DNA of 57,867 nt from Candidatus Parcubacteria bacterium (lineage in GTDB: Bacteria; Patescibacteriota; Microgenomatia; Levybacterales; GWA1-39-11), in NCBI GenBank assembly GCA_003599595.1, contig QZIP01000038.1, forward strand, positions 1 to 57,867, read 5' to 3'. This document shows positions 3,835 to 57,435 of this stretch, one piece after another. Every line of letters begins with the position of its first letter. Position 1 is the first letter of the stretch. Made by a program: the position numbers and the translations under genes. The notes beneath the pieces are model-generated. The model did not search any database, was not told the DNA's origin, and saw only the letters and a program-made list of their open reading frames with translations.

Positions 3835-4356
3835 AGAAAAATATGGCGTCCTGATCCCAAAAATAAATCATTAATTCAGCTCCCAACCTGGCTTAATGGT
3901 TTTAAAAAACATAGGGAAAAGTTCCAGGGGTCTGGTCCATTTCCAGAAGCATTATTCTTAAGAACAGAAGATTTTTTCAAGGAGAATTATTTAAAACAAA
4001 CAAAAAGTCAGATGCTGCTTCACGGAGATTTTCATCACACTCATATCCTTTCCTCAAAAAGAGATGAATGGCTTGCAATTGATCCAAGGGGAATTACCGG
4101 TTGTCCTGTTTACGACGTTGCAACATTTCTAAATAATCCTAGACCAAGCTTATTAAAAAAACCAAATATAAAACAAATAATCAAAAAAAGAATCGAGATA
4201 TTCTCTAAAGAGTTTGATATGGATAAAAAAGAAATTATAGAGTGGGGAATTACTCAGTCAATGCTTTCTGCAATTTGGAGCCTGGAAGATCATGGAAGAG
4301 GTTGGGAATATGGAATAAATTTTGCAGAACTACTTTTTGAGATAGAGCTAGAATAA
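3835..4356 (+). pseudogene. 5'-truncated aminoglycoside 6-phosphotransferase (APH(6)/StrB-like) remnant
   Basis: The frame is open from 3835 but the first ATG is at 4012. LLHGDFHHTHIL...WLAIDPRG...YDVA parallels the LHGDLHHENI...LVIDPVG catalytic region of APH(6). About 100 N-terminal residues have no counterpart, and dus ends at 3791. Confidence 0.7.
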
Positions 4357-4365
4357 ATACCGACA

Positions 4366-4396
4366 AAGGTTACACCTTGACAAAAGGTGTAACCTT
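4366..4396. repeat. GGTTACACC-family perfect hairpin between convergent genes (possible bidirectional terminator)
   Basis: AAGGTTACACCTT (4366-4378), loop GACAA, AAGGTGTAACCTT (4384-4396). 13-bp perfect stem. Confidence 0.6.
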
Positions 4397-4455
4397 AATC
4401 CTTAAAACTGTTAAAGCTATTTCAGTCCCATGACTGTGTTCAGCAAAAATCAAGC

Positions 4456-5307
4456 TTAAACGTATCTTCTTGCTATTTCTCTGCAAAGGGTGTCAAGCTC
4501 TCTTCTTGATCTTAAGAATGCACTTGTTTTTCTAAAAGGAAAAACCTTGTCCCATAAACTTCTTTTAATTCCTGCCTTTTCATATTGACTAGTTTTAATA
4601 GTATGTGTCCCTCTTTTAGTATGAGGAATTGTTCCTTCTAACTCGCCATATATTCTTTTAAGCCGTTTTGGCACCCGTTGTCCCCTTGGATATTGATCTA
4701 ATTTTCTATTTGTGCCCTCATTGTATCTTTTAAGAGCAAGCGCTTTATAGTCATCCACTTCATATTCATCAACTCCTTTAAAATAATCATTCCAATACCA
4801 CACGGGAATCTTGGTATAGGCTATTTGCGTTTCTACTATTGCTTCAGGAAATGCCTCGGTGAATAAATCATTTGCCCGCTGGATGCTTTCTCCTTTATCT
4901 TTATAGTCATCAACTATTAGTATTCTTCCTTTTGTGTCAATACTCTTTCCATAAGTTTGTTCAACAATTAAAGGTGGTCCTTTAAAACTTCTTTCTAGGG
5001 ATGCATCAGAGAGTGGGCTGATATTTATAAATCTTATAGCAGGTAAAGTAGCGCCGGGAAAATAAACAGGAAATAGTTTTTTAAAGATATAAGCAAGAGG
5101 TCTAGCGCTTTTATCAAGAAAAAAAATACTATTAGGCATTTTTTGGTCCCTTACACGATCGGAGAAGCTGCACATAAATTTATGGGTTTCATCAATTAAT
5201 TCTGACAAGGAAAGCCTTTCTGGCATCTCTGATGTGTAAGCCTTCTCTGTTTGCTCGTATGTTGCTTCATACATTGGAAAAATTATGGAACATTCGCAAC
5301 TTCTCAT
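4456..5307 (-). CDS. Hypothetical protein with a phosphoribosyltransferase-like motif
   Basis: 283 aa. RILIVDDYKDKGESI resembles the PRPP-binding loop of type I PRTases. The start is ambiguous (alternative Met at MYEATYE). No SD. Confidence 0.45.
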   Translation of the reverse strand: MRSCECSIIFPMYEATYEQTEKAYTSEMPERLSLSELIDETHKFMCSFSDRVRDQKMPNSIFFLDKSARPLAYIFKKLFPVYFPGATLPAIRFINISPLSDASLERSFKGPPLIVEQTYGKSIDTKGRILIVDDYKDKGESIQRANDLFTEAFPEAIVETQIAYTKIPVWYWNDYFKGVDEYEVDDYKALALKRYNEGTNRKLDQYPRGQRVPKRLKRIYGELEGTIPHTKRGTHTIKTSQYEKAGIKRSLWDKVFPFRKTSAFLRSRRELDTLCREIARRYV

Positions 5308-5391: not shown

Positions 5392-6477
5392 GCTGAATTC
5401 GCAGTGGAAGTGCACCAGTTGTTAGGTGCGGGGATTCGCAAGTATTCTCTCAAGCATTTCATTTGGTGTCAAGTACCCCAGACATTTTCTCGGCGTGTTA
5501 TTCATGATATTCTCAATCCGGGTTAAATCTTTTTGGGTTAAATTGTCGACACTTTGTTTCTTGGGAACAAATTTTTTTAATCTACCAATGCCATTTTCAA
5601 TTGATCCTTTCTCCCAGGAGTGATATGAATTACAAGCATAGACTGGCATCATTGTTTGTTTGGTAAACTTCTCGTGTTGACTGTTCTCAGATCCTCGATC
5701 TATTGTCATGGTCTTTCGTAGTGTTTGATTCTCATGCTTCAATTGTATAACCAATGCTTTCCGTTTGGTTTGTGACTTTTGATCTTTGAGTTTTCTGATT
5801 CTCATTACCCGTGATTTTCTCTCAACTGTTGCTGATATTCCTGTTTTGTCTGTTGTAACAGTTCCCACATTATCTGTTTCCCAATGTCCTGCCTCACACC
5901 GTGTATTTGCCGCTTCTGGCCTCATTTCTATTGGTAAGGCTGTGGGTAACCTCACAGCCTTTACCTTTCTTCCATGCTTTTTCATCCGTCGTTTCCGGTG
6001 AAATGTTAAATGCTGCCACAGTTTCATTCCCCGTGTCTTTGACCGTTGTGAATAAATATACCGATAAATCGTTTCATCATTAAATGAATACTCAGGATAG
6101 TCAATTGAAAGTCTTGCTGCAATTTGTTCAGGACTCCAATAATATGGTTTTCTTAAATGCTTCCTTAGATACAAAAATACCAAAGGACATTTAAGTGGTG
6201 CTCTATATCGTTGTCTGTCTGCCCAAATCGTTGATCTTCTATCAGCAATGCACGGAAGATAGTTTTTTCCATATTTTGTATGTCGTTTGAGTTCACGAGA
6301 CAAACTTGAATGGGACCGTCCTAACCGGCGCGCTATTTCCCGTAATGATTCTCTTGACTCCTTCCGGGCAAACAGCTTTTCCCGTTCCTCAAGCGATAAA
6401 TGATGATATGTCCGCATTGATTTTACACCTCCTCCCGAATCCTATATTATACCTGAGTGGTGCACTTCGTTTGCGAA
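5392..6477 (-). mobile_element. IS30-family insertion sequence, apparently intact
   Basis: Imperfect terminal inverted repeats TTCGCAGTGGAAGTGCACCA (5398-5417) and TGGTGCACTTCGTTTGCGAA (6458-6477), 17 of 20 complementary. Single transposase ORF. About 1.08 kb. No clear target-site duplication. Confidence 0.8.
5422..6417 (-). CDS. IS30-family DDE transposase
   Basis: 331 aa. N-terminal HTH (SLREIARRLGRSHSSLSRELKR), HWETD, TIDRGSE and HSWEKGSIEN match the IS30 DDE pattern. Strong SD GGAGGAGGTG 8 nt upstream of the ATG. Confidence 0.9.
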   Translation of the reverse strand: MRTYHHLSLEEREKLFARKESRESLREIARRLGRSHSSLSRELKRHTKYGKNYLPCIADRRSTIWADRQRYRAPLKCPLVFLYLRKHLRKPYYWSPEQIAARLSIDYPEYSFNDETIYRYIYSQRSKTRGMKLWQHLTFHRKRRMKKHGRKVKAVRLPTALPIEMRPEAANTRCEAGHWETDNVGTVTTDKTGISATVERKSRVMRIRKLKDQKSQTKRKALVIQLKHENQTLRKTMTIDRGSENSQHEKFTKQTMMPVYACNSYHSWEKGSIENGIGRLKKFVPKKQSVDNLTQKDLTRIENIMNNTPRKCLGYLTPNEMLERILANPRT

Positions 6478-6537
6478 CCTAAAAACGTGCGGGTTTTTAT
6501 TTAAGCTTTGTATGTTGCAAATACCTTTCTAAACAGC

Positions 6538-6606
6538 AAAAACACCCTTGATCTTATTCAGAATCCCGACTTTGTCGGAATGATCCCTTTCGGGACCTCA
6601 AGGGTG
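6538..6606 (-). terminator. Complex stem-loop plus T5 run downstream of the 131-aa membrane-protein gene
   Basis: CACCCTTGA (6543-6551) pairs with TCAAGGGTG (6598-6606) around inner CCCGAC/GTCGG hairpins. It is followed on the minus strand by TTTTT (6538-6542). Confidence 0.5.
6563..6581. repeat. Degenerate CCCGAT-family palindrome copy
   Basis: ATCCCGACTTTGTCGGAAT. 7 of 9 arm positions pair. Confidence 0.4.
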
Positions 6607-6660
6607 CTCCTGCACTTTTATTCAGTTGTTGTGGAAAATGTTAGGTTACTGGCTCAAGAC

Positions 6661-7056
6661 CTACATGAACAGGTGGAAGATCCAGCCGATCACAAGTATT
6701 ACCATTGGGAAGAAGATCGCCTGGAGTGCGCTCTGTATGAAGTCCTTCTGTTTGCGCTCTATCACGGCCTTGATCGACCTGCCTGTTACAGGATCTGTGA
6801 GTGTCATCTCCTGGTTAGATCTCTCATTAGTACCGAAACCGGTCACGACCAATCTCCCAATAAGGAACAATCCCAAGGCTTGGGGGATGGTTAGACTAGG
6901 GAGGTCATTGAATGTGCTGACTGCGAACCACTGCCAGAAGATAGTGAGAACGTACCCTCCAAGAACGAGCGAGATCAGGAATAGAATTATGTTGCTGACG
7001 AATTTCGCTACACGGTTTTCCATGTTCTCGCTTACCTCAGATGTTTTGGTAGTCAT
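6661..7056 (-). CDS. Small integral membrane protein, unknown function (GC-richer block)
   Basis: 131 aa with hydrophobic helices. SD-like AAAGGA 7 nt upstream of the ATG. Terminator downstream. Overlapping plus-strand ORFs look like antisense shadows. Confidence 0.6.
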   Translation of the reverse strand: MTTKTSEVSENMENRVAKFVSNIILFLISLVLGGYVLTIFWQWFAVSTFNDLPSLTIPQALGLFLIGRLVVTGFGTNERSNQEMTLTDPVTGRSIKAVIERKQKDFIQSALQAIFFPMVILVIGWIFHLFM

Positions 7057-7175
7057 TAGATTGTCCTTTCTGTCCTTGCCAAGTTTGATTAGATGATATT
7101 AGCAAGAAGTAGGTGCGTGGTTAACACCGTCCCCACCAAAGGTGAGCTTGCCACCGCTTTTTTGAGATCGAGAAG

Positions 7176-7463
7176 TTAGTCCTTGATGACAAACCCGATG
7201 ACACAGATGATAAGTAGCGTAGCTGCCCAGATTGCACCCCATACTACATTCGCAGCAATGAGGCCGAAAAACGTTACACTAATTTCGACGATGAGTCTCG
7301 GCCACACCATGAGGGAGTTCATGTTGATAGATCCCCACTCATATTTGGGTATTCCGATGAATACTAGGGAAAGCAGTGCAACTATTGCTATCCACCACCC
7401 CCATGCCATTCCTATAGCAACCAGACACGCGATTCGGATACTAAGAAGGATTAGAAAACTCAT
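7176..7463 (-). CDS. Small integral membrane protein, unknown function (GC-richer block)
   Basis: Start chosen at the Met of MSFLILLSI because AAGGGAG lies 7 nt upstream. About 95 aa, three hydrophobic segments. Confidence 0.55.
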   Translation of the reverse strand: MSFLILLSIRIACLVAIGMAWGWWIAIVALLSLVFIGIPKYEWGSINMNSLMVWPRLIVEISVTFFGLIAANVVWGAIWAATLLIICVIGFVIKD

Positions 7464-7650
7464 GTCCAAGCTCCCTTCTGAACCAATACACATGTGAATT
7501 CCGCAACTCTCAATAGGCGGCACACCAGATACCTAATTTAATATTTCACCATAGGGATGACAGATATCCAGAGAACCACCTACTGAGTAGATTAGCTTTC
7601 CTCCAATCTTAGTTCGGTCTACCTAAGTCAAACACGATTTTTCACAACTA

Positions 7651-7866: not shown

Positions 7867-7901
7867 ATAAGATTACACCTTGTAACAAGGTGTAATCTTA
7901 T
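7867..7901. repeat. GATTACACC-family perfect hairpin downstream of the erm-like gene
   Basis: ATAAGATTACACCTT, loop GTAAC, AAGGTGTAATCTTAT. 15-bp stem. Confidence 0.6.
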
Positions 7902-15989: not shown

Positions 15990-18364
15990 ATAATAAAATG
16001 ACAAAAAATATTTTACCTTTTTTTGTACTTTCTCTAATTTCGGTAGTTTTCTTCTATAAAATGTTTATATTTGGACAAATTCCATTTCCTGGAGATCTAT
16101 TGGTATCGGAATATTCTCCATGGAAGTTTGAATCATATCTTGGATATAACCCAGGTTCCTACCCAAGTAAAGTTCAATATTTTGATGTTTTAAGACAGAT
16201 TTATCCCTGGAAAACAATATCAATAGAAATTCTAAAAAACGGACAAATTCCCTTATGGAATCCATATAGTTTTGCAGGTGCGCCTCTTCTTGCAAATTTT
16301 CAATCAAGCGTTTTTTACCCCCTAAATATAGTATATTTTATACTTCCACAGATTTACGGTTGGAGTTTTCTTGTTTTTTTGCAGCCTTTTCTAGCAAGCA
16401 TATTTACTTATTTTTATTGCAGGAAAATTGGAATTGGAAAAACTGCCTCACTACTGTCTTCCATTGCTTTTTCTTATTCCCTTTTTACAACAGTTTTTCT
16501 TGAGTATAATATTATTATTCAAACTGTTCTTTGGCTTCCCTTGCTTCTTTATCTTATCGAAAGGTTGATAGAAAAACTTGAAATTAAAAACATTCTATTC
16601 TTTATTGCAGCCACTATGTTTTCTTTTCTTGCAGGCCACATTCAGATTTTTGGCTTCCTGGTAATATTTGTTTTTCTTTATGTTTTTTCTAGAATAGTTT
16701 GTTTCAATGCCGCAAGAAGATACAAGATCAAAACATTAAGTGTCATTTCTTTATCAATATTTTTTGCTCTTGGAATATCTTCTTTTCAGCTTCTGCCTAC
16801 TATTGAGCTGATCAATAATTCTGCAAGAGTATCTCAGTCTTACCAATTTTTAATAGAAAAACTACTTATACAGCCGGACCAGTTAATTCTCTTTTTATCT
16901 CCTGATTTTTTTGGAAACCCAGCTGCTATAAATTATTTATTATCTGATTCTTACCCGGGGAATGCCGTTTATATAGGGCTTATTCCAGTAATCTTTTCTT
17001 TCTTCTCAATGTTTTTGTTCAGGAAAAAATACTTAGTCAAATTTTTTATAACATCTACATTCATATTAGCCTTTTTTATTACAAGATCTCCTTTTACAGA
17101 ATTTTTCTATTCTTTTGAAATTCCACTATTTTCTACAGGGTCTCCTACAAATTCCATTTTTCTTCTTAGCTTTTGTTTGAGTATTCTTGCAGGTTTTGGG
17201 GTAGATCACTGGATTAGTAATAAGTCTAGAAAGCATCTTTTAATTCTTGCCGCCTTTCTTGTAATATTTATATTTGTTTGGCTGCTAAAATCTGCCTTAT
17301 ACTCTTCAGTCTCTACAAAAAACCTTCTTTATTCAAGTCTTTTGTTTTTTTCAATACTACCTCTTTTTATATTTGGTTCAAGATTCAACAAGAAAAAATT
17401 GACATCAATTTTGTTTATTGGAATTTTAATTATAGATCTATTTTATTTCTTTCAAAAATTTAATCCATTTGTTCCTAAGGATTTTGTTTTTCCTTCTCAA
17501 GAAGTTTTTGGATTTCTCAAAGACAAAGCAGAGACAAACCGTTTTTGGGCTTTTGGTCATACTGCAATACTTTCCAACACTACTGCTCAGTATTCCTTGT
17601 TCCATCCAGAAGGATACGATCCACTATATCCACGTGCCTATGGAGAATTTATCCAGAGTTCAAAAGACGGAAAAATAGTAACTAGCTTTGATAATTCAAG
17701 CCGCTCAGATGCTTTCCTTGCCCCAAGTTTTGGAGAGGAGGATTTCTCAAAAAACCAGAATAGGCTTAAGGTCTTAGATTTGTTAGCCGTTAAATATATT
17801 GTAGACAGAGCAGAAAATGGTAGCACGCAAAAAACATTTCCAGAGAATAGATTTAAAACAATTTATCAAAAAGACGGTTGGACAATACAGGAAAATCTAA
17901 AAGCGCTACCCCATATGTTTTTAGCAAATGATTATGTCATCTATAAAAACAATCAGGAATTTGAAAAAATATTTTTTTCTGAAGATTTTAACCCCCGGAA
18001 GACAGTATTGTTAAAAGAAAGTTTAATGAATTTTAATCTCACAAAAAATCAAGAAGCAAAGCTTGACCTGTTATCTTATACTCCCAACAAAATTACCTTA
18101 AATTCAGAAAGTAAAGAGAATAAAATATTGTTTGTTTCAGACACTTATTATCCGGGATGGAGGGCACTTATTGACAATGAAGAAGTAAAAATTTATAAAG
18201 CAAACCACGCTTTTAAAGCAGTAATAGTTCCTAAAGGAAAACATAGGGTTATACTTGAATACTGGCCTGGATCCTTTAATTTAGGTTATAAAATATCTAT
18301 AATAAGCTTATTGTTGCTTTTTGCACTCATTATGATTTCTAGAAAAAAGTTATATGCAAAATAA
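15986..18364 (+). CDS. GT-C family B (YfhO-like) membrane glycosyltransferase B1
   Basis: 792 aa. IYPWK..GQIPLWNPYSFAGAPLLANFQSSVFYPLN, PDFFGNP. C-terminal YYPGWRALIDNEEVKIYKAN..GKHRVILEY plus a TM anchor. ATGA overlap with A1. Confidence 0.7.
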   Translation: MNNKMTKNILPFFVLSLISVVFFYKMFIFGQIPFPGDLLVSEYSPWKFESYLGYNPGSYPSKVQYFDVLRQIYPWKTISIEILKNGQIPLWNPYSFAGAPLLANFQSSVFYPLNIVYFILPQIYGWSFLVFLQPFLASIFTYFYCRKIGIGKTASLLSSIAFSYSLFTTVFLEYNIIIQTVLWLPLLLYLIERLIEKLEIKNILFFIAATMFSFLAGHIQIFGFLVIFVFLYVFSRIVCFNAARRYKIKTLSVISLSIFFALGISSFQLLPTIELINNSARVSQSYQFLIEKLLIQPDQLILFLSPDFFGNPAAINYLLSDSYPGNAVYIGLIPVIFSFFSMFLFRKKYLVKFFITSTFILAFFITRSPFTEFFYSFEIPLFSTGSPTNSIFLLSFCLSILAGFGVDHWISNKSRKHLLILAAFLVIFIFVWLLKSALYSSVSTKNLLYSSLLFFSILPLFIFGSRFNKKKLTSILFIGILIIDLFYFFQKFNPFVPKDFVFPSQEVFGFLKDKAETNRFWAFGHTAILSNTTAQYSLFHPEGYDPLYPRAYGEFIQSSKDGKIVTSFDNSSRSDAFLAPSFGEEDFSKNQNRLKVLDLLAVKYIVDRAENGSTQKTFPENRFKTIYQKDGWTIQENLKALPHMFLANDYVIYKNNQEFEKIFFSEDFNPRKTVLLKESLMNFNLTKNQEAKLDLLSYTPNKITLNSESKENKILFVSDTYYPGWRALIDNEEVKIYKANHAFKAVIVPKGKHRVILEYWPGSFNLGYKISIISLLLLFALIMISRKKLYAK

Positions 18365-20042
18365 AGCTAGATTATTAATCTTAATTTTTATATTTTTAAT
18401 AGCCTTTATCTTGCGTTTTTACAAACTGGGTGAAGTTCCTTTTGGCTTCTATCAAGATGAATCAGCAATAGGCTACAACGCATACTCAATAATTGAAACA
18501 GGAAAAGATGAGTACGGGGAAAATTTACCCTTATACTTTAAGTCTTTTGGAGACTATAAACTTCCTGTTTATATTTACCTGGATACTATTCCAATAAAGC
18601 TTTTTGGTCTTAATGAATTTGCCGTCCGTTTTCCCTCTGCTTTTTTTGGATTCTTATCTGTTGTAGTTTTCTACTTTTTTGTTAAAGAATTCACAAGAGA
18701 TAAGAATCTTTCACTTGTTGCTGTTGGGTTATTTGCTTTAAATCCTTGGTCTTTGCACTATAATAGGGCAACGTTTGAGGTAAGTATTTCACTGTTTTTG
18801 TTTCTGCTGGGAGGGCTAATTCTTCAAAAAGCCTTCAATGGTGGATCAAAAGGAAAATTTGCATCAGGAACATTATTGTTTATAATCAGTCTTTATTCCT
18901 ATAATCTCACCAGGCTTTTATCTCCCGCTTTTTATCTCTTGCTCTTAATATTAAATATCAAAAAAATTAAAAACATCTCAAAAACTGAAATAATTATAAC
19001 ATCATTTATCTCAGTGGTAATGCTTGTTCCCTTTGTTAAGACGCTATTGGCAAGTGGAGGAATATCTTCTGCATCAGGAACATTAATTTTTTCAAGCGCT
19101 TCTGTTCTTGCCCCAATGATTGAACTTAGAAGTTATTTTGTAGATGTGCCGTTATCAAAATTTTTCTTTAATACTCCAGAGCTTATATTTATTAAATATC
19201 TGCAAAATATTATTTCCTATTTTTCTCCAGCATTTTTCTTTATATCGGGCTCATCGCACGGGAATCACGGAATCGGCAACATTGGACAGTTGTATTTGTT
19301 TGAGTTTCCTCTTGTGATTCTTGGATTAATTAAAATCGTAAAAGAAAAAAGCTCAAAATACAATTTATTCATATTTTGGGCTCTAATTGTTATTATGGCG
19401 GCAAGCTTAACCCGTGAAGCTCCACATGCAACTAGAAGCTTCTTTCTAATTTCTTCACTGGAAGTGTTTTCAGCACTAGGTGTGCTTATTTTAATAAATT
19501 GGGCTAAATCCATAAAACCATCTTTTCTAAAAATTGGGATATCCTTGATTTTTGTAGGTTTTCTTTTCTATAACTTAATATATTATTTCTATTCTTATTA
19601 TGTCCGTTTCCCAATTTATTACGCCAAAGCTTGGCGCCTGGCAGATAAAGAAGTATCTCTATACATAAAAGAAAATGAACATAAATATAGTAAAATAATT
19701 TTTGATAGCAAAGCAGGCTTTATGTATTCTTCTCTTCTTTTTTATTCCAGGTTTAATCCATCTGAGTTTCAAGGAACCGTCCAAAGGCTTCCCGATGACT
19801 CCGAAGGTTTTAGTAAGGTGCAGTCTTTTGGGAAATATGAATTTAAAGATATTGACTGGTCAAGTTATGACAAGCCTGGAGAGAAGGTACTGTATGTCAC
19901 CACGACAGAAGGAAAGCCGCTTGAAGTTCCACCTTTAAAGGCTGTTTATTATCCAAAAAAACCGGTTGTATTTTCCCTGGGACAGGAGATTATCCAGTTC
20001 CCAATAGAGGAAATTGCCTATGTACTTGTTGAAAAAAAATAA
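18354..20042 (+). CDS. GT-C family C (ArnT/PMT GT39-like) C1
   Basis: 562 aa. LRFYKLGEVPFGFYQDESAIGYNAYSI, NPWSLHYNRATFE, REAPHATRSFF. 11-nt overlap with B1. Confidence 0.75.
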   Translation: MQNKARLLILIFIFLIAFILRFYKLGEVPFGFYQDESAIGYNAYSIIETGKDEYGENLPLYFKSFGDYKLPVYIYLDTIPIKLFGLNEFAVRFPSAFFGFLSVVVFYFFVKEFTRDKNLSLVAVGLFALNPWSLHYNRATFEVSISLFLFLLGGLILQKAFNGGSKGKFASGTLLFIISLYSYNLTRLLSPAFYLLLLILNIKKIKNISKTEIIITSFISVVMLVPFVKTLLASGGISSASGTLIFSSASVLAPMIELRSYFVDVPLSKFFFNTPELIFIKYLQNIISYFSPAFFFISGSSHGNHGIGNIGQLYLFEFPLVILGLIKIVKEKSSKYNLFIFWALIVIMAASLTREAPHATRSFFLISSLEVFSALGVLILINWAKSIKPSFLKIGISLIFVGFLFYNLIYYFYSYYVRFPIYYAKAWRLADKEVSLYIKENEHKYSKIIFDSKAGFMYSSLLFYSRFNPSEFQGTVQRLPDDSEGFSKVQSFGKYEFKDIDWSSYDKPGEKVLYVTTTEGKPLEVPPLKAVYYPKKPVVFSLGQEIIQFPIEEIAYVLVEKK

Positions 20043-52194: not shown

Positions 52195-52308
52195 TATTAA
52201 TCATTGGAAATATCTTTCAATAGGCAAACTAAAAAATATTCAAATGATATAGTAATCAATAATGTATAGGTTTCTGACTCATTGCCAATGCATTTACAAT
52301 CTTTATTA

Positions 52309-53940
52309 ATGAATAAAAATAATCTTATATTTGGATTAATTATTCTCATTGCGTTTTTTTTACGTTTTTGGCAGCTTGATCAAGTTCCGTCAGGAGCTCA
52401 TGCAGATGAGGCAGACACAGCTTACTCTGCTTATAGTATTTTAAAAACAGGATTAACTCAGTACGGTACCTTTAATCCTTTAGCTTTTACAGAATTTAAT
52501 GGAGGGACCCACCCACCCTTGTATACATATTTTTTAATTCCATTTGTTAAATTTTTTGGGTTAAATATCTTTGTAGAAAGAATGCCTTCTGCAGTATTTG
52601 GAACATTGACGATTCCCATTTTTTACTTTTTATTAAAGAAAATATTGCAGTCGTCAGCTGCTGCTCTTGTTGGATCTTTCTTTCTTACAGTAAATCCGTG
52701 GTTTTTGCATATGTCTAGACAAGGACTTCTGGAATCAATAGCCGTTTTTTTCGTAGTACTAGGCATAACTCTTTTTGTATATGCAAAAGAAAAGAAATAT
52801 TTATACATATTGTCCTTTATTGCCTTTGGATTATCACTTCATGCTTATGACGCTCCTAAAATATTTGTCCCCTTGTTTTTAATTGCTCTTATTATTTATC
52901 AATATAAATCAATCATAAGAATTAAGAAATATTTTATTGCCACTTTTGTTGTTTTTGTTATCTTTTATTTACTTATGTTAAAAACTATTTTTTTGGATGG
53001 ACAAATAAATGATTATAATAAAGTAAGTCTTTTTAACACATTGTCATTAGAAAATGCAGTAAATTATGAGAGACAATATACTAGGGCTCCTCTATGGTTA
53101 AGTGGAATATTCCACAATAAAGCTACTGTTTTACTCAAACAATTAGAAACAAGTTATTTTAATATTTTTTCAATAAATTGGTTATTTATTAATGGTGAAG
53201 GAAACCTTCAGCAAGCAGTTGTAAGACACGGTCAATTCCACTTATTTGAACTCCCGCTATTTTTTGTAGGTGCTTATGCTCTGTTTAGAAAAAGGAGAAA
53301 TACTGGTCTCCTGCTCATGATTTGGTTATTATTAGCACCAATTCCAGGAGCTTTAACACAGGGAAATTATCCTTACAGGTCTGTTTTATTATTGCCGGCA
53401 CCAATTATCTTTTCATCTTATGGACTAGTGTGGTTATGGAGCTATTTAGAAAAGTTAAAACAAAAGATAATCAAAAGATTAATCCGCATTTTTATTATTT
53501 TATTAATCATAGGGTACACGTCAAGCTTTATCTTTACATACTTTTTTGATTATCCTGTTTATGCTTCTAAATGGTGGTTCAAAGAAAGAAACGAAGCATT
53601 AAATTACGCTATTTCTCTTCAAGATAAATATGACCGCATTTTTATTGATGGAGATATTGAATGGGCAGTAATGTACGCTTTCAACGGTAAGGTTTCTCCC
53701 CATATTTTTCAAAATTCATACAAAAATAAAAGCAAGTATAAAAATGAAGATGTAATCAGTATTGGTAAGTTTACCTTTGGAAGTTTTAAATCAAGGCAGA
53801 TATCTAGTCCTTCTGCATATTTCCCCAAAAACTCAATTGTATTAACTGATGAGTCTAATTTTTCTGAAGAAAAAGGAATGAAGATCTTTACAGCAGCAGA
53901 TCCTTTAGACAGAGTATATAAAATATTTGAAATAAAATAA
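52309..53940 (+). CDS. GT-C family C (GT39-like) C3
   Basis: LRFWQLDQVPSGAHADEADTAYSAYSI, NPWFLHMSRQGLE. ATG at 52309 chosen by alignment with paralog N-termini; the ORF is open from 52282. Confidence 0.7.
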   Translation: MNKNNLIFGLIILIAFFLRFWQLDQVPSGAHADEADTAYSAYSILKTGLTQYGTFNPLAFTEFNGGTHPPLYTYFLIPFVKFFGLNIFVERMPSAVFGTLTIPIFYFLLKKILQSSAAALVGSFFLTVNPWFLHMSRQGLLESIAVFFVVLGITLFVYAKEKKYLYILSFIAFGLSLHAYDAPKIFVPLFLIALIIYQYKSIIRIKKYFIATFVVFVIFYLLMLKTIFLDGQINDYNKVSLFNTLSLENAVNYERQYTRAPLWLSGIFHNKATVLLKQLETSYFNIFSINWLFINGEGNLQQAVVRHGQFHLFELPLFFVGAYALFRKRRNTGLLLMIWLLLAPIPGALTQGNYPYRSVLLLPAPIIFSSYGLVWLWSYLEKLKQKIIKRLIRIFIILLIIGYTSSFIFTYFFDYPVYASKWWFKERNEALNYAISLQDKYDRIFIDGDIEWAVMYAFNGKVSPHIFQNSYKNKSKYKNEDVISIGKFTFGSFKSRQISSPSAYFPKNSIVLTDESNFSEEKGMKIFTAADPLDRVYKIFEIK

Positions 53941-53942
53941 TC

Positions 53943-55677
53943 CTAGTTAAAACTTGTGATAAATTTTTCACAAAACAATTTTTCTGACAATCTTTCAACC
54001 TCTAAGTCGTTCAGCCCAATGCCTATAGGGTATCTATTTAGCATGTATTTATTACAAACTTTGTCATTAAATATTTTATAGATCTCTCCTCCATCTGATA
54101 ATTGACTAATGCTTAAATTCTTTGAAAGAGAACTTGTAGACTTGCACTTGTTGTCAGGAAGAGTGATGATTGTATAATTCAAGGGCAAAGATTCTTTAGG
54201 GCAAAGAGAAACCTTAAAATTTTTATAATCATAATTACTCCTTTTTACTACAGAAGAGATTTCACTTACTGTTTTCCTACTAAGCATATTGTTATAGAAT
54301 AAATACTGCTTAAATAATGGTGGAATTGAACTTTCTAAACTATGATCAATTAGAACAACGTTTTGATTATTATCCGATGCAAGACTGATGTATTTAGAAA
54401 GTATTCTTCCGCTAAATCCAAAACCTTCAGAGTTGTATAGGGGATTTTGAAGCAAATATATATGTAGGAAATTAGAAAGAGAAATAGCGTAAAGAAAAAT
54501 AACACCAAAAACAATAATGGATTTTAAATATCCCTTGAATAAGTTTATAGAAAAATAAATTCCATACCCCGTTATTAATAATAGGGTTGGGAATAGAAGA
54601 AAAGAGCGTGTGGCATAGCTCACCCCCACAGTGCTTAATACTGTAGGTAGGGGGGGAAATCAAGACAATAGCAAATAGTAAGAGACTTGCTTTACGGTGG
54701 TACTTAAAAAGCGAATATGCACCAATAATTAGAAATATTACATCTATATAAAAGAATAGACCATGATTCCACACGGAAAATGTAGATCTTCCATCTCCAT
54801 ATAGAAATAGTAATTGAGGTGAAAAAGCTCCATAGTATTTTTCCAAAGAGTATTTTAGGTAAGTAGAAATCTTATTTTCCAATAAATTATTTATGGGAGA
54901 TTCAATCGATAGCTTCCGCTCTTTATTAACTCTTTGTTCAATTGAATAGTGAAAAGGTGTTGATATTTCTGCTGTTCTTGATGATCCTGGCTGAAAAACC
55001 GAGAAGAATAAATAGTGAGCCATAATGCCTAAAGACATAAGAAGAATAAAAATATATACCTTTGTATACCTCTTCTTATTTATATATTTCCATGAAAAGA
55101 GGATAATTATAATTGAGAATGGAAGAAAGACTATTTTAGAACCAATATAAGAAAAGAATGCTAAAAACAGTAGCGGAATAGCAAGTAGAAGCATATGTCT
55201 TTTTGCATAAAGCAATACAAGAAGGGAAGAAAAATAAAAGAAGGAAGAGATAGGAGAATCAAAAGCCGTACGGCCGAAATATATCATCCAGGGATTAATT
55301 GCTGCAAGTAGTCCTATTGCTATAGCTTGTGGCTTTCCAAAGAGCTTTTTTGCAATAAAATACAAGACAAGTACAAGCATCGTATTAATAAAAACATATG
55401 GAAGTCTTGCATAGAAGAGAGAAAAAGGAAAAATACCAATAATTGGGGCAATAAAAACATATGGAAGCTCGGCTTTGGGATATTCCAAAGGAGGCGGCTT
55501 AAGACTAAGGGGGTTCCATGTTCCACTTATATCACTTCCACTCAGAAAGAGTGCCTTAGCATTGAAGACATAATCAAGTTCATCATCGCTTATGCCTGTT
55601 GGAATCTTGTCTAGCCACAATAATCTTAAAGACAATGATAAGATTAGTATTATGATTATAGGTAGATATCTTGTCAC
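53943..55677 (-). pseudogene. GT-C family C (GT39-like) C4, split by a frameshift at a C7 homopolymer
   Basis: The N-terminal ORF 54472-55677 (LRLLWLDKIPTGISDDELDY) loses paralog similarity after ..AIVLISPP. ORF 53943-54629 resumes with VGVSYATRSFLLFPTLLLITGYG. Removing one C from C7 (plus-strand G7 at 54650-54656) gives LISPLPTVLSTVGVSYATRSF, colinear with the paralogs. Confidence 0.8.
54650..54656 (-). repeat. C7 (plus-strand G7) homopolymer at the frameshift point
   Basis: TAGGGGGGGAAAT on the plus strand. G/C runs are rare in this AT-rich window: the only others I noted are two C6 runs (near 21600 and 31712). Confidence 0.9.
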
Positions 55678-55731
55678 AATTAAACTTTATGTGTATTATA
55701 ATATACTTAATATAGTTTAGCATATTGATGT

Positions 55732-57435
55732 ATGAGTAGAAAATATATTCTAATATTAATTATCCTTCTTGCATTTATATTACGTTTTTATCAAATATCA
55801 AACATTCCCCCTTCTCTTACTTGGGATGAAGCGGCGTGGGGCTATAATGCATATTCATTAGGAATTAATGGAAGAGATGAGTTCGGAAAATTTCTACCCA
55901 TAACTTACATTGAGTCTTTTGGCGACTTTAAGCCCCCTCTATATGCTTATTTGTCAATTTTACCAATAAAATTGTTTGGCCTTAATGAATTTTCTGTAAG
56001 ATTTGCATCTGCCTTTTTAGGAACATTAACGGTTTTATTGACATATTTTCTAACAAAACAAATATTTTCGCAAAAATCACAGTTACTTGATATTTGGCAT
56101 TTGAAATTTGGAATTCCAGAAGTAGCATCACTACTTCTGGCTATCTCTCCTTGGCATATTCTTCTATCCCGTGCTGCTTTTGAAGCTAACGTTGCCACTT
56201 TTTTTATAGTCCTTGGAGTATTGTTGTTTTTTATCTCTACTCAAAACACCAAGGGCGCATCTTCAATCTCATTAATTCCACTTTGGATATGGAGACGTAT
56301 TAACACATCGGGAGGCTTGTTCTTGCTTTCAGTGCTATCATTTACCGCATCTATGTATACTTTTAATACTGCACGTGTTGTTGTTCCACTTTTGGTTTTT
56401 GGTCTTATTACCGGAAAAAGAAAAGCACTCCTAAATATAAAGAAACAAGTATTCATAGCCGCAGTAATCGGATTTATTATCTTTCTTCCTTTAGGACTAT
56501 TTCTTAAAACACCTCAGGCTCAGCTAAGATTCCAAGAGGTCAATATTTTTTCTGATCCTTCTGTTATTGAAAGATCCAATCAGCAGATAAAAAATGACAA
56601 TAATGCTTTTTGGTCAAAAATAATTCACAATAGAAGGCTGGCTTATTCTGTAGAATTTCTAAGGCATTACTTTGACAACCTTAACCCCTCATTCCTCTTC
56701 TTTAAAGGTGATGGTAACCCAAAATTTTCTACACAAGACATAGGTCAAATGTATGTTTGGGAACTCCCATTCTTTATATTCGGTTTTCTTTATCTGTTTA
56801 GAAATAGGCAAGGAAATTGGTGGATTGTTCCTTACTGGTTATTGATTGCAATCTTGCCTGCTGCAACAGCCAGGGAAACACCTCATGCTCTTAGAATAGA
56901 AGCTGCTTTGCCAACATTTCAAATAATAACTGCTTATGGATTATTCCAAATAATTTCAAATTTCAAATTTCAAATTTCAAATTTCAAATTAAATTATCTA
57001 TTGCCAAGTATTGTTTTTGTATTAGCATTATTTAATTTGGCATATTTCATGCATAATTATTTTGTTCATTACCCGCGGGAATTCTCAGGAGAGTGGCAAT
57101 ATGGTTATAGGGAAGCAATAAATTATGCAAAGAGTGTTGAAGATCAGTATAGCAATATTTATTTAACAGACAGTCTTGGCAGACCATATATATACACTCT
57201 TTTCTATACTCAGTACGATCCTAATAAATTCTTACAGGAAGCAAAAATAGAGAGAGAAGTTTTTGGTTTTGTAAAAGTTAAAAATTTTGGAAAATACACT
57301 TTTGAGAAAACACAAGAACCCTCTGTAAATACATTATTTATTGATAGACCAGGCAATGTTCCTGGAGGAGCAAATATATTAAAAGAATTTTATCTATTAA
57401 ATGGTGAAAAAATATTAACAGCCTACACAATATAA
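55732..57435 (+). CDS. GT-C family C (GT39-like) C5
   Basis: 567 aa. LRFYQISNIPPSLTWDEAAWGYNAYSL, SPWHILLSRAAFE, RETPHALRIEAALP. Contains an in-frame heptamer array. Confidence 0.75.
   Translation: MSRKYILILIILLAFILRFYQISNIPPSLTWDEAAWGYNAYSLGINGRDEFGKFLPITYIESFGDFKPPLYAYLSILPIKLFGLNEFSVRFASAFLGTLTVLLTYFLTKQIFSQKSQLLDIWHLKFGIPEVASLLLAISPWHILLSRAAFEANVATFFIVLGVLLFFISTQNTKGASSISLIPLWIWRRINTSGGLFLLSVLSFTASMYTFNTARVVVPLLVFGLITGKRKALLNIKKQVFIAAVIGFIIFLPLGLFLKTPQAQLRFQEVNIFSDPSVIERSNQQIKNDNNAFWSKIIHNRRLAYSVEFLRHYFDNLNPSFLFFKGDGNPKFSTQDIGQMYVWELPFFIFGFLYLFRNRQGNWWIVPYWLLIAILPAATARETPHALRIEAALPTFQIITAYGLFQIISNFKFQISNFKLNYLLPSIVFVLALFNLAYFMHNYFVHYPREFSGEWQYGYREAINYAKSVEDQYSNIYLTDSLGRPYIYTLFYTQYDPNKFLQEAKIEREVFGFVKVKNFGKYTFEKTQEPSVNTLFIDRPGNVPGGANILKEFYLLNGEKILTAYTI
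56954..56988 (+). repeat. Perfect heptanucleotide array (TTTCAAA)x5 inside the GT39 CDS
   Basis: Five exact tandem 7-mers encoding ISNFKFQISNFK. Confidence 0.9.

Follow-up and report, generated by a model that had tools for sequence, protein, structure and literature searches.

One extra base in a C7 tract disrupts a predicted GT-C fold glycosyltransferase gene of a Microgenomates glycosylation island

Phase-variable glycosyltransferase genes of Campylobacter jejuni, Neisseria (pgtA and the lgt genes) and Haemophilus carry a G or C homopolymer within the coding sequence, where a one-base change switches the gene between a full-length and a truncated product. Poly-G/C tracts of this kind recur across strains and are found in many genes per genome. 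In C. jejuni the tracts are long, mainly G9–G10, and change at a rate of 1e-4 to 1.6e-3 per division (PMC8355987). In M. smegmatis, the rate for a 7G tract is 3.1e-8 per generation (PMC10334774). Short tracts can nevertheless matter: glpK of M. tuberculosis has a mid-gene run of seven C/G bases, in frame as 7C, in which a +1 insertion produces a reversible null allele; such insertions have arisen recurrently and independently across thousands of isolates, and the selective agent is known (PMC10334774). Ordinary slippage pseudogenes and null alleles offer a further comparison, with a single indel in the longest local homopolymer, a redundant array of paralogs and a tract that is not conserved.

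The locus described here lies in a window (the whole stretch of DNA analysed) of 57,867 bp with a GC content of 32.9%. It shares with the phase-variable glycosyltransferases an intragenic G/C homopolymer and a one-base step between full-length and truncated reading; unlike the long tracts of C. jejuni, its in-frame state is C6, and among about 75 relatives no other sequence has the tract, which is also not above chance expectation. It shares with glpK the mid-gene seven-base run and the +1 insertion, whereas the in-frame state of glpK is 7C and comes with population data, and here we have a single observation with C6 as the in-frame state. The likeness to ordinary slippage null alleles extends to the position of the indel, the paralog array and the unconserved tract; the difference is that no secondary lesions have yet accumulated, so that the event would be very recent.

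The disrupted gene and its C7 tract

The gene, named C4 in the first-pass annotation, occupies 53943–55677 on the minus strand, as delimited by its ORFs, by repair of the frame and by its orthologs. It is present as two overlapping minus-strand ORFs in different frames, 54472–55677 (401 aa, GTG start) and 53943–54629 (228 aa), as had been described. The first-pass annotation had also located the break at a C7 homopolymer and proposed that C6 would restore the gene, and both points are borne out: exactly one extra base within the tract at 54650–54656 (C7 on the minus strand, G7 on the plus strand, in-frame state C6) disrupts the gene, and deletion of one G yields a single 577-aa ORF reading ..LISPLPTVLSTVGVSYATRSFLLFPTLLLITGYG... 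The repaired protein is colinear with its paralogs in the window, as had been claimed, and with about 70 orthologs as well; the RE(A/T)PHA(T/L)R motif cited for the paralogs is indeed present in those at 18354–20042 and 55732–57435.

In the +1 frame, a TGA codon lies immediately 5′ of the tract. Homology to the orthologs in frame 0 stops at S341–P342 (..LISP) and picks up in the +1 frame with L343–P344 at LPTVLSTVGVSY; together with the TGA codon, this switch means that the indel must sit inside TCCCCCCC. The in-frame C6 state reads TCC CCC CTA CCT, encoding S341, P342, L343 and P344, and in the full-length reading the junction spans LISPLPTVLSTVGVSYATR and the junction peptide contains SPLPTVLSTVGVSYATR. 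As it stands, the upstream ORF (54472–55677, minus strand) encodes 342 native residues and then 59 out-of-frame ones, and the downstream part (53943–54649, minus strand), read in the +1 frame, corresponds to native residues 343–577. A tract of C6 thus gives 577 aa, C7 gives the 342 native and 59 out-of-frame residues, and C8 leads to a stop after six codons, so that a change of one unit toggles the gene between a full-length and a truncated ORF, as it does in phase-variable loci. The tract lies 59% of the way into the gene, not near its 5′ end.

The G7 at 54650–54656 is the sole G/C homopolymer of at least seven bases in the window, which has five runs of six; it is the single longest G/C run, in agreement with the earlier remark that no longer one was present. 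A hairpin at the tract was also considered: the C7 can pair with a G5 located 23 nt downstream, and the predicted stability did not go beyond that of shuffled sequences for either RNA (z = −0.59) or DNA (z = −1.44).

The neighbouring genes lie close on both sides, at the distances given in the first-pass annotation. A 2-bp gap (53941–53942) separates the stop codon from that of the convergent paralog at 52282–53940, and a divergent intergenic region of 54 bp (55678–55731) separates the GTG at 55677 from the ATG of the paralog at 55732–57435. This region contains promoter-like hexamers in both directions. The deposited gene models begin at different points: the NCBI product (402 aa) begins with MVTRY, which means that the deposited CDS starts one codon before the GTG at 55677, at 55680, with an ATT codon (55678–55680), and the IMG product (382 aa) begins with LWLDK and starts 19 residues further in.

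The gene belongs to a glycosylation island of about 47 kb (10555–57435) encoded nearly entirely on the plus strand. The island contains at least five or six PMT_2-like, six PTPS_related and four YfhO GT-C membrane proteins, as well as several GT2 genes, a GT4 gene, a methyltransferase and a Polysacc_synt_3 flippase.

Outside the island, an IS30-like insertion sequence was found at 5398–6477, with a transposase ORF at 5422–6417 on the minus strand (HTH_38 domain) and 20-nt terminal inverted repeats at 5398–5417 and 6458–6477 that are 85% complementary. Two copies of a 32-nt palindrome, AAGGTTACACCTTGACAAAAGGTGTAACCTTA, located at 4366–4397 and 7869–7900 and 84% identical, flank a 3.5-kb segment that comprises a hypothetical gene, the IS30-like element and a stretch of 43% GC (about 6480–7530) whose small membrane-like ORFs gave no Pfam match. 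Possible explanations are that the bracketed segment is a mobile insertion or that the palindromes are plain terminators. Adjoining this putative insertion, the 114-aa ORF at 4012–4356 on the plus strand matches only the C-terminal third (residues 161–251 of 252) of the APH(6)/hydroxyurea kinase family and resembles the remnant of a truncated gene. Three stretches of low coding density in the window are accounted for by the IS30-like element with its cargo, by the truncated kinase fragment and by a small reverse ORF.

Protein family and consequences of the shift

The repaired protein has about 70 full-length relatives of 560–600 aa (E-values of 1e-190 to 1e-51, best identity 52%), which are labelled, where they are named at all, as “glycosyltransferase family 39 protein” or ArnT-like. 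A genome scan located orthologs in Levybacteria, Gottesmanbacteria, Shapirobacteria, Woesebacteria and unclassified Patescibacteria MAGs. Identity to the other PMT_2-like genes of the window is only 24–25%, which identifies the gene as a member of an old, separate ortholog group and not as a recent duplicate.

The assignment to GT39 made in the first-pass annotation is not borne out at the Pfam gathering score: the repaired protein scores 25.0 bits against PMT_2, for which the cut-off is 26.1, and has no PMT match. Some orthologs carry a weak precomputed PF13231 match. GT39 is a database label here, not a demonstrated membership.

Compared with solved structures, the family profile gave a marginal match to ArnT (5ezm, E = 0.13). 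We then relied on the AlphaFold (AF2) model of ortholog P0002, which is 52% identical to the repaired protein and is modelled with a pLDDT of 94.9. With this model, and not the window protein itself, as the query, Foldseek returned STT3, ALG12, ArnT, PglB and AglB at a probability of 1.0, with E-values for STT3, ALG12, ArnT and PglB of 4e-6 to 2e-5 and TM-scores of only 0.4–0.5. The confident model and these matches together indicate a GT-C fold. The acidic motif of the first loop, GISDDELDY, is present, and in an alignment of 71 sequences E33 is invariant and D31 and D32 are at least 90% conserved. As modelled through its ortholog, the gene encodes a conserved GT-C fold membrane glycosyltransferase resembling ArnT, PMT and STT3, and its donor is probably a polyprenyl-phosphate-linked sugar. 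The multi-pass membrane fold and the acidic first external loop are common to GT-C enzymes (ArnT/GT83, PMT/GT39, STT3-PglB/GT66 and ALG12), whereas the similarity of this protein to any solved structure is marginal and its PMT_2 score falls just below threshold. Unlike known GT-C enzymes, the protein has a C-terminal cysteine-containing domain specific to this Microgenomates ortholog group.

Mapped by homology onto the P0002 model, the break comes directly behind transmembrane helix 331–343 of P0002. The part downstream of it comprises the final two to three transmembrane helices and, at the C terminus, an alpha/beta domain of some 140 aa that has conserved cysteines. The truncated product would lack the loop with the invariant proline, these helices and the C-terminal domain and, because of these losses, is very probably inactive.

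Apart from the single extra base, the gene is well preserved. In the 71-sequence alignment the junction follows the motif [AS]P[LI]P with P344 invariant, and the repaired junction matches it. The strongly conserved columns (at least 90%) are kept at 34 of 35 positions before the shift and at all 26 after it (60/61 overall), and the +1 frame is open through all 235 residues that follow. Relative to the N-terminal part, C-terminal identity stands at 0.87, a ratio that falls in the range of intact orthologs (0.82–0.885). No second lesion and no relaxed constraint were found in the rest of the gene in this alignment. The reading frame is thus disrupted relative to intact orthologs, with no further inactivating mutations. 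The lack of decay downstream (26/26 columns) implies that the lesion is very recent, reversible or artefactual, and all three fit equally.

The tract in relatives and against chance expectation

The first-pass annotation had proposed a comparison of orthologous tracts, which gave no sign of a conserved switch. No G/C run of at least six bases was found at the homologous site in the genomic loci of 69 orthologs (0/69) or in the four closest relatives from Logan assemblies (0/4); seven Logan loci also lack the tract, and codons at the site in Logan relatives read, for example, GCA CCA CTA CCT or GGA CCC TTG CCG. Related loci amounting to 594 kb contained seven further G/C runs, seven or eight bases long and all in frame. 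One of them lies in the closest genomic ortholog (L001, Levybacteria CG2_30_37_29; positions 4133–4139), where an in-frame C7, ACG CCC CCC CTA, encodes T-P-P-L. That run is located elsewhere in the gene, within the conserved PP(L)EYP loop, for which the window reads CCG CCT CCT.

A second frameshifted member of the family was encountered in the MAG SRP135725_co2_582 (ortholog L024), which passes from frame 2 to frame 3 at about 5088–5116, in a poorly conserved loop. The shift site differs from that of the C7 and contains short T and C stretches without a long homopolymer. Sporadic breaks, real or artefactual, thus occur in this ortholog family at about 1 in 70.

The inverted orientation of the gene had been offered as a sign that it was special, as the only inverted member of its family in the window. 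This argument fails, since the closest orthologs are inverted as well, lying a few bases from their convergent neighbours and a short distance from their divergent ones; the tight convergent junction is found in L072, L073 and L078. Judged from these gene orders, the inverted orientation is ancestral to the ortholog group and, being common to the closest orthologs, tells nothing about a switch.

Chance expectation was estimated by synonymous-codon shuffles of all coding sequence of the window (37 genes), the observed count being taken with the gene repaired. The shuffles gave 3.44 ± 1.77 G/C runs of at least six bases, whereas the window has five (P = 0.26); for runs of at least seven, the expectation is 0.76. 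Under the codon usage of the window, TCC-CCC-CTN arises at any one Ser-Pro-Leu with a probability of about 0.01. The C6/C7 tract is therefore no anomaly; it is what codon usage predicts. We take it to be an incidental outcome of codon choice in this lineage. That the frameshift fell in the longest G/C run is an outcome that slippage and a homopolymer miscall would both yield.

Homopolymers of A/T of at least seven bases are significantly depleted in the coding sequence (90 observed against 115 ± 7 in synonymous shuffles), which is consistent with selection against slippery runs in an AT-rich genome.

A general tendency of the assembly to homopolymer errors was also considered and set aside, as no other frameshift was found in the window. 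Of 96 A/T runs of 7 to 9 bases, 89 fall within long ORFs that are intact, and the 57.9 kb showed no second split gene. The assembly therefore gives no impression of being error-prone at homopolymers.

The organism is represented by one assembly. Its sequence cluster consists only of the NCBI and IMG copies of the same contig, an exact-flank pattern with a variable gap gave no matches in metagenome_contigs, and a protein scan of the same dataset returned no close relative of the protein. Looking up the exact products likewise gave no entry.

Origin of the extra base

We favour a real and very recent slippage insertion, at a probability of about 0.5, which would make the gene a nascent pseudogene or a majority null allele within a redundant array. 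In this lineage, the Ser-Pro-Leu codons TCC CCC CTA would have happened to give a C6 run, a single strand-slippage insertion would have extended it to C7, and translation would now depart from the native frame after residue 342 and terminate 59 codons later. The event would be very recent, so that the sequence represents either a nascent pseudogene or a loss-of-function allele carried by the majority of the sampled population; reversion by slippage would be possible in principle, and there is no sign that the tract was selected as a switch. We infer that the extra base is present in the cells and not in the consensus only. Loss of the gene may be tolerated thanks to the many paralogous GT-C genes of the island; the window has five or six that are PMT_2-like, six PTPS_related and four YfhO genes.

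An error of consensus or assembly is the main rival, though less probable: in the organism the tract would be C6 and the 577-aa gene intact, sequencing or assembly having introduced the seventh C. Such an error would explain why the gene is perfect bar one base, with 26 of 26 conserved downstream columns kept and 235 codons open, and why the lesion lies in the contig's single longest G/C run, where homopolymer miscalls concentrate; the organism is also known from one assembly only. However, a run of seven bases is normally resolved correctly by short-read consensus, the 89 A/T runs of 7 to 9 bases in long ORFs came through without a frameshift and no other gene is split, and in related MAG loci none of the seven G/C runs of 7 or 8 bases shifts the frame. 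With the assembly clean elsewhere, a miscall at the single G7 becomes less likely, though it is possible. An evolved contingency locus, in which slipped-strand mispairing would toggle C6 (ON) and C7 (OFF) at a raised rate and generate surface-glycan heterogeneity, is unlikely. The one-base toggle of the full-length ORF, a gene class (surface glycosylation) typical of such loci and an OFF allele without secondary decay all accord with it, the closest ortholog has an in-frame C7 at another site, and C7 tracts can frameshift reversibly without mismatch repair, as in M. tuberculosis glpK (PMC10334774). The comparative data point the other way, in that the tract is missing at the site in 69 of 69 orthologs and likewise in the four closest relatives, no enrichment of G/C runs is seen relative to synonymous shuffles (5 vs. 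3.44 ± 1.77; P = 0.26), the tract lies 59% into the gene, away from the 5′ end, and the seven other G/C runs of at least seven bases in related loci are all in frame. Length may speak against it too: with C7 as the OFF state, ON would correspond to C6, below the lengths of classical contingency loci, where hypermutable G/C tracts have about eight bases or more, or seven without mismatch repair. A functioning slippage switch at the C6/C7 tract, in a bacterium that may have no mismatch repair, strikes us as slightly more doubtful still.

Two further accounts would keep the protein functional despite C7, and even taken together they are improbable. In the first, which we consider very improbable, the full-length protein would be made from the C7 sequence by recoding, through a +1 ribosomal slip on tRNA-Pro at CCC-C or through transcriptional slippage. 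CCC-C is a shift-prone motif, and a +1 slip at UCC CCC C|CU A would regenerate exactly the conserved S-P-L-P; however, the site is common to no ortholog, the 0 frame continues with CCU, a frequently used Pro codon (38%) and so not a slow one, no Shine-Dalgarno-like stimulator precedes the tract, and the local RNA structure stays within shuffles (z = −0.59). The conserved slippery site and the stimulator of a programmed +1 frameshift were thus both missing. In the second, the least probable of all, the two ORFs would be translated separately and assemble into an active enzyme. The downstream ORF does have a GTG at 54629; against this, no ribosome-binding motif precedes that codon, a start there would leave out the invariant P344 loop, and none of about 70 orthologs is naturally split at the position of the C7.

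The recent slippage insertion thus remains our preferred reading. The first-pass description of a gene switched off by a single-base change stands, and its interpretation as a phase-variable switch is not supported, given that relatives have no tract, G/C runs show no enrichment and the ON state would be C6; the alternatives that it listed, an assembly indel or a plain pseudogene (here a very young one), are more likely than a switch. For annotation, the two deposited ORFs should count as one frameshifted gene, of which the NCBI and IMG products (P0081, 402 aa, and P0001, 382 aa) are truncated versions.

On the likeliest reading the finding matters little, as one broken copy or miscalled base among redundant membrane glycosyltransferase genes. 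In the literature searched, no paper combined “phase-variable” with “candidate phyla radiation”. If the tract did act as a switch, it would be the first indication of homopolymer phase variation of surface glycans in candidate-phyla-radiation (Microgenomates) bacteria, and slippage could then bear on phage evasion or on host attachment in an episymbiotic lifestyle.
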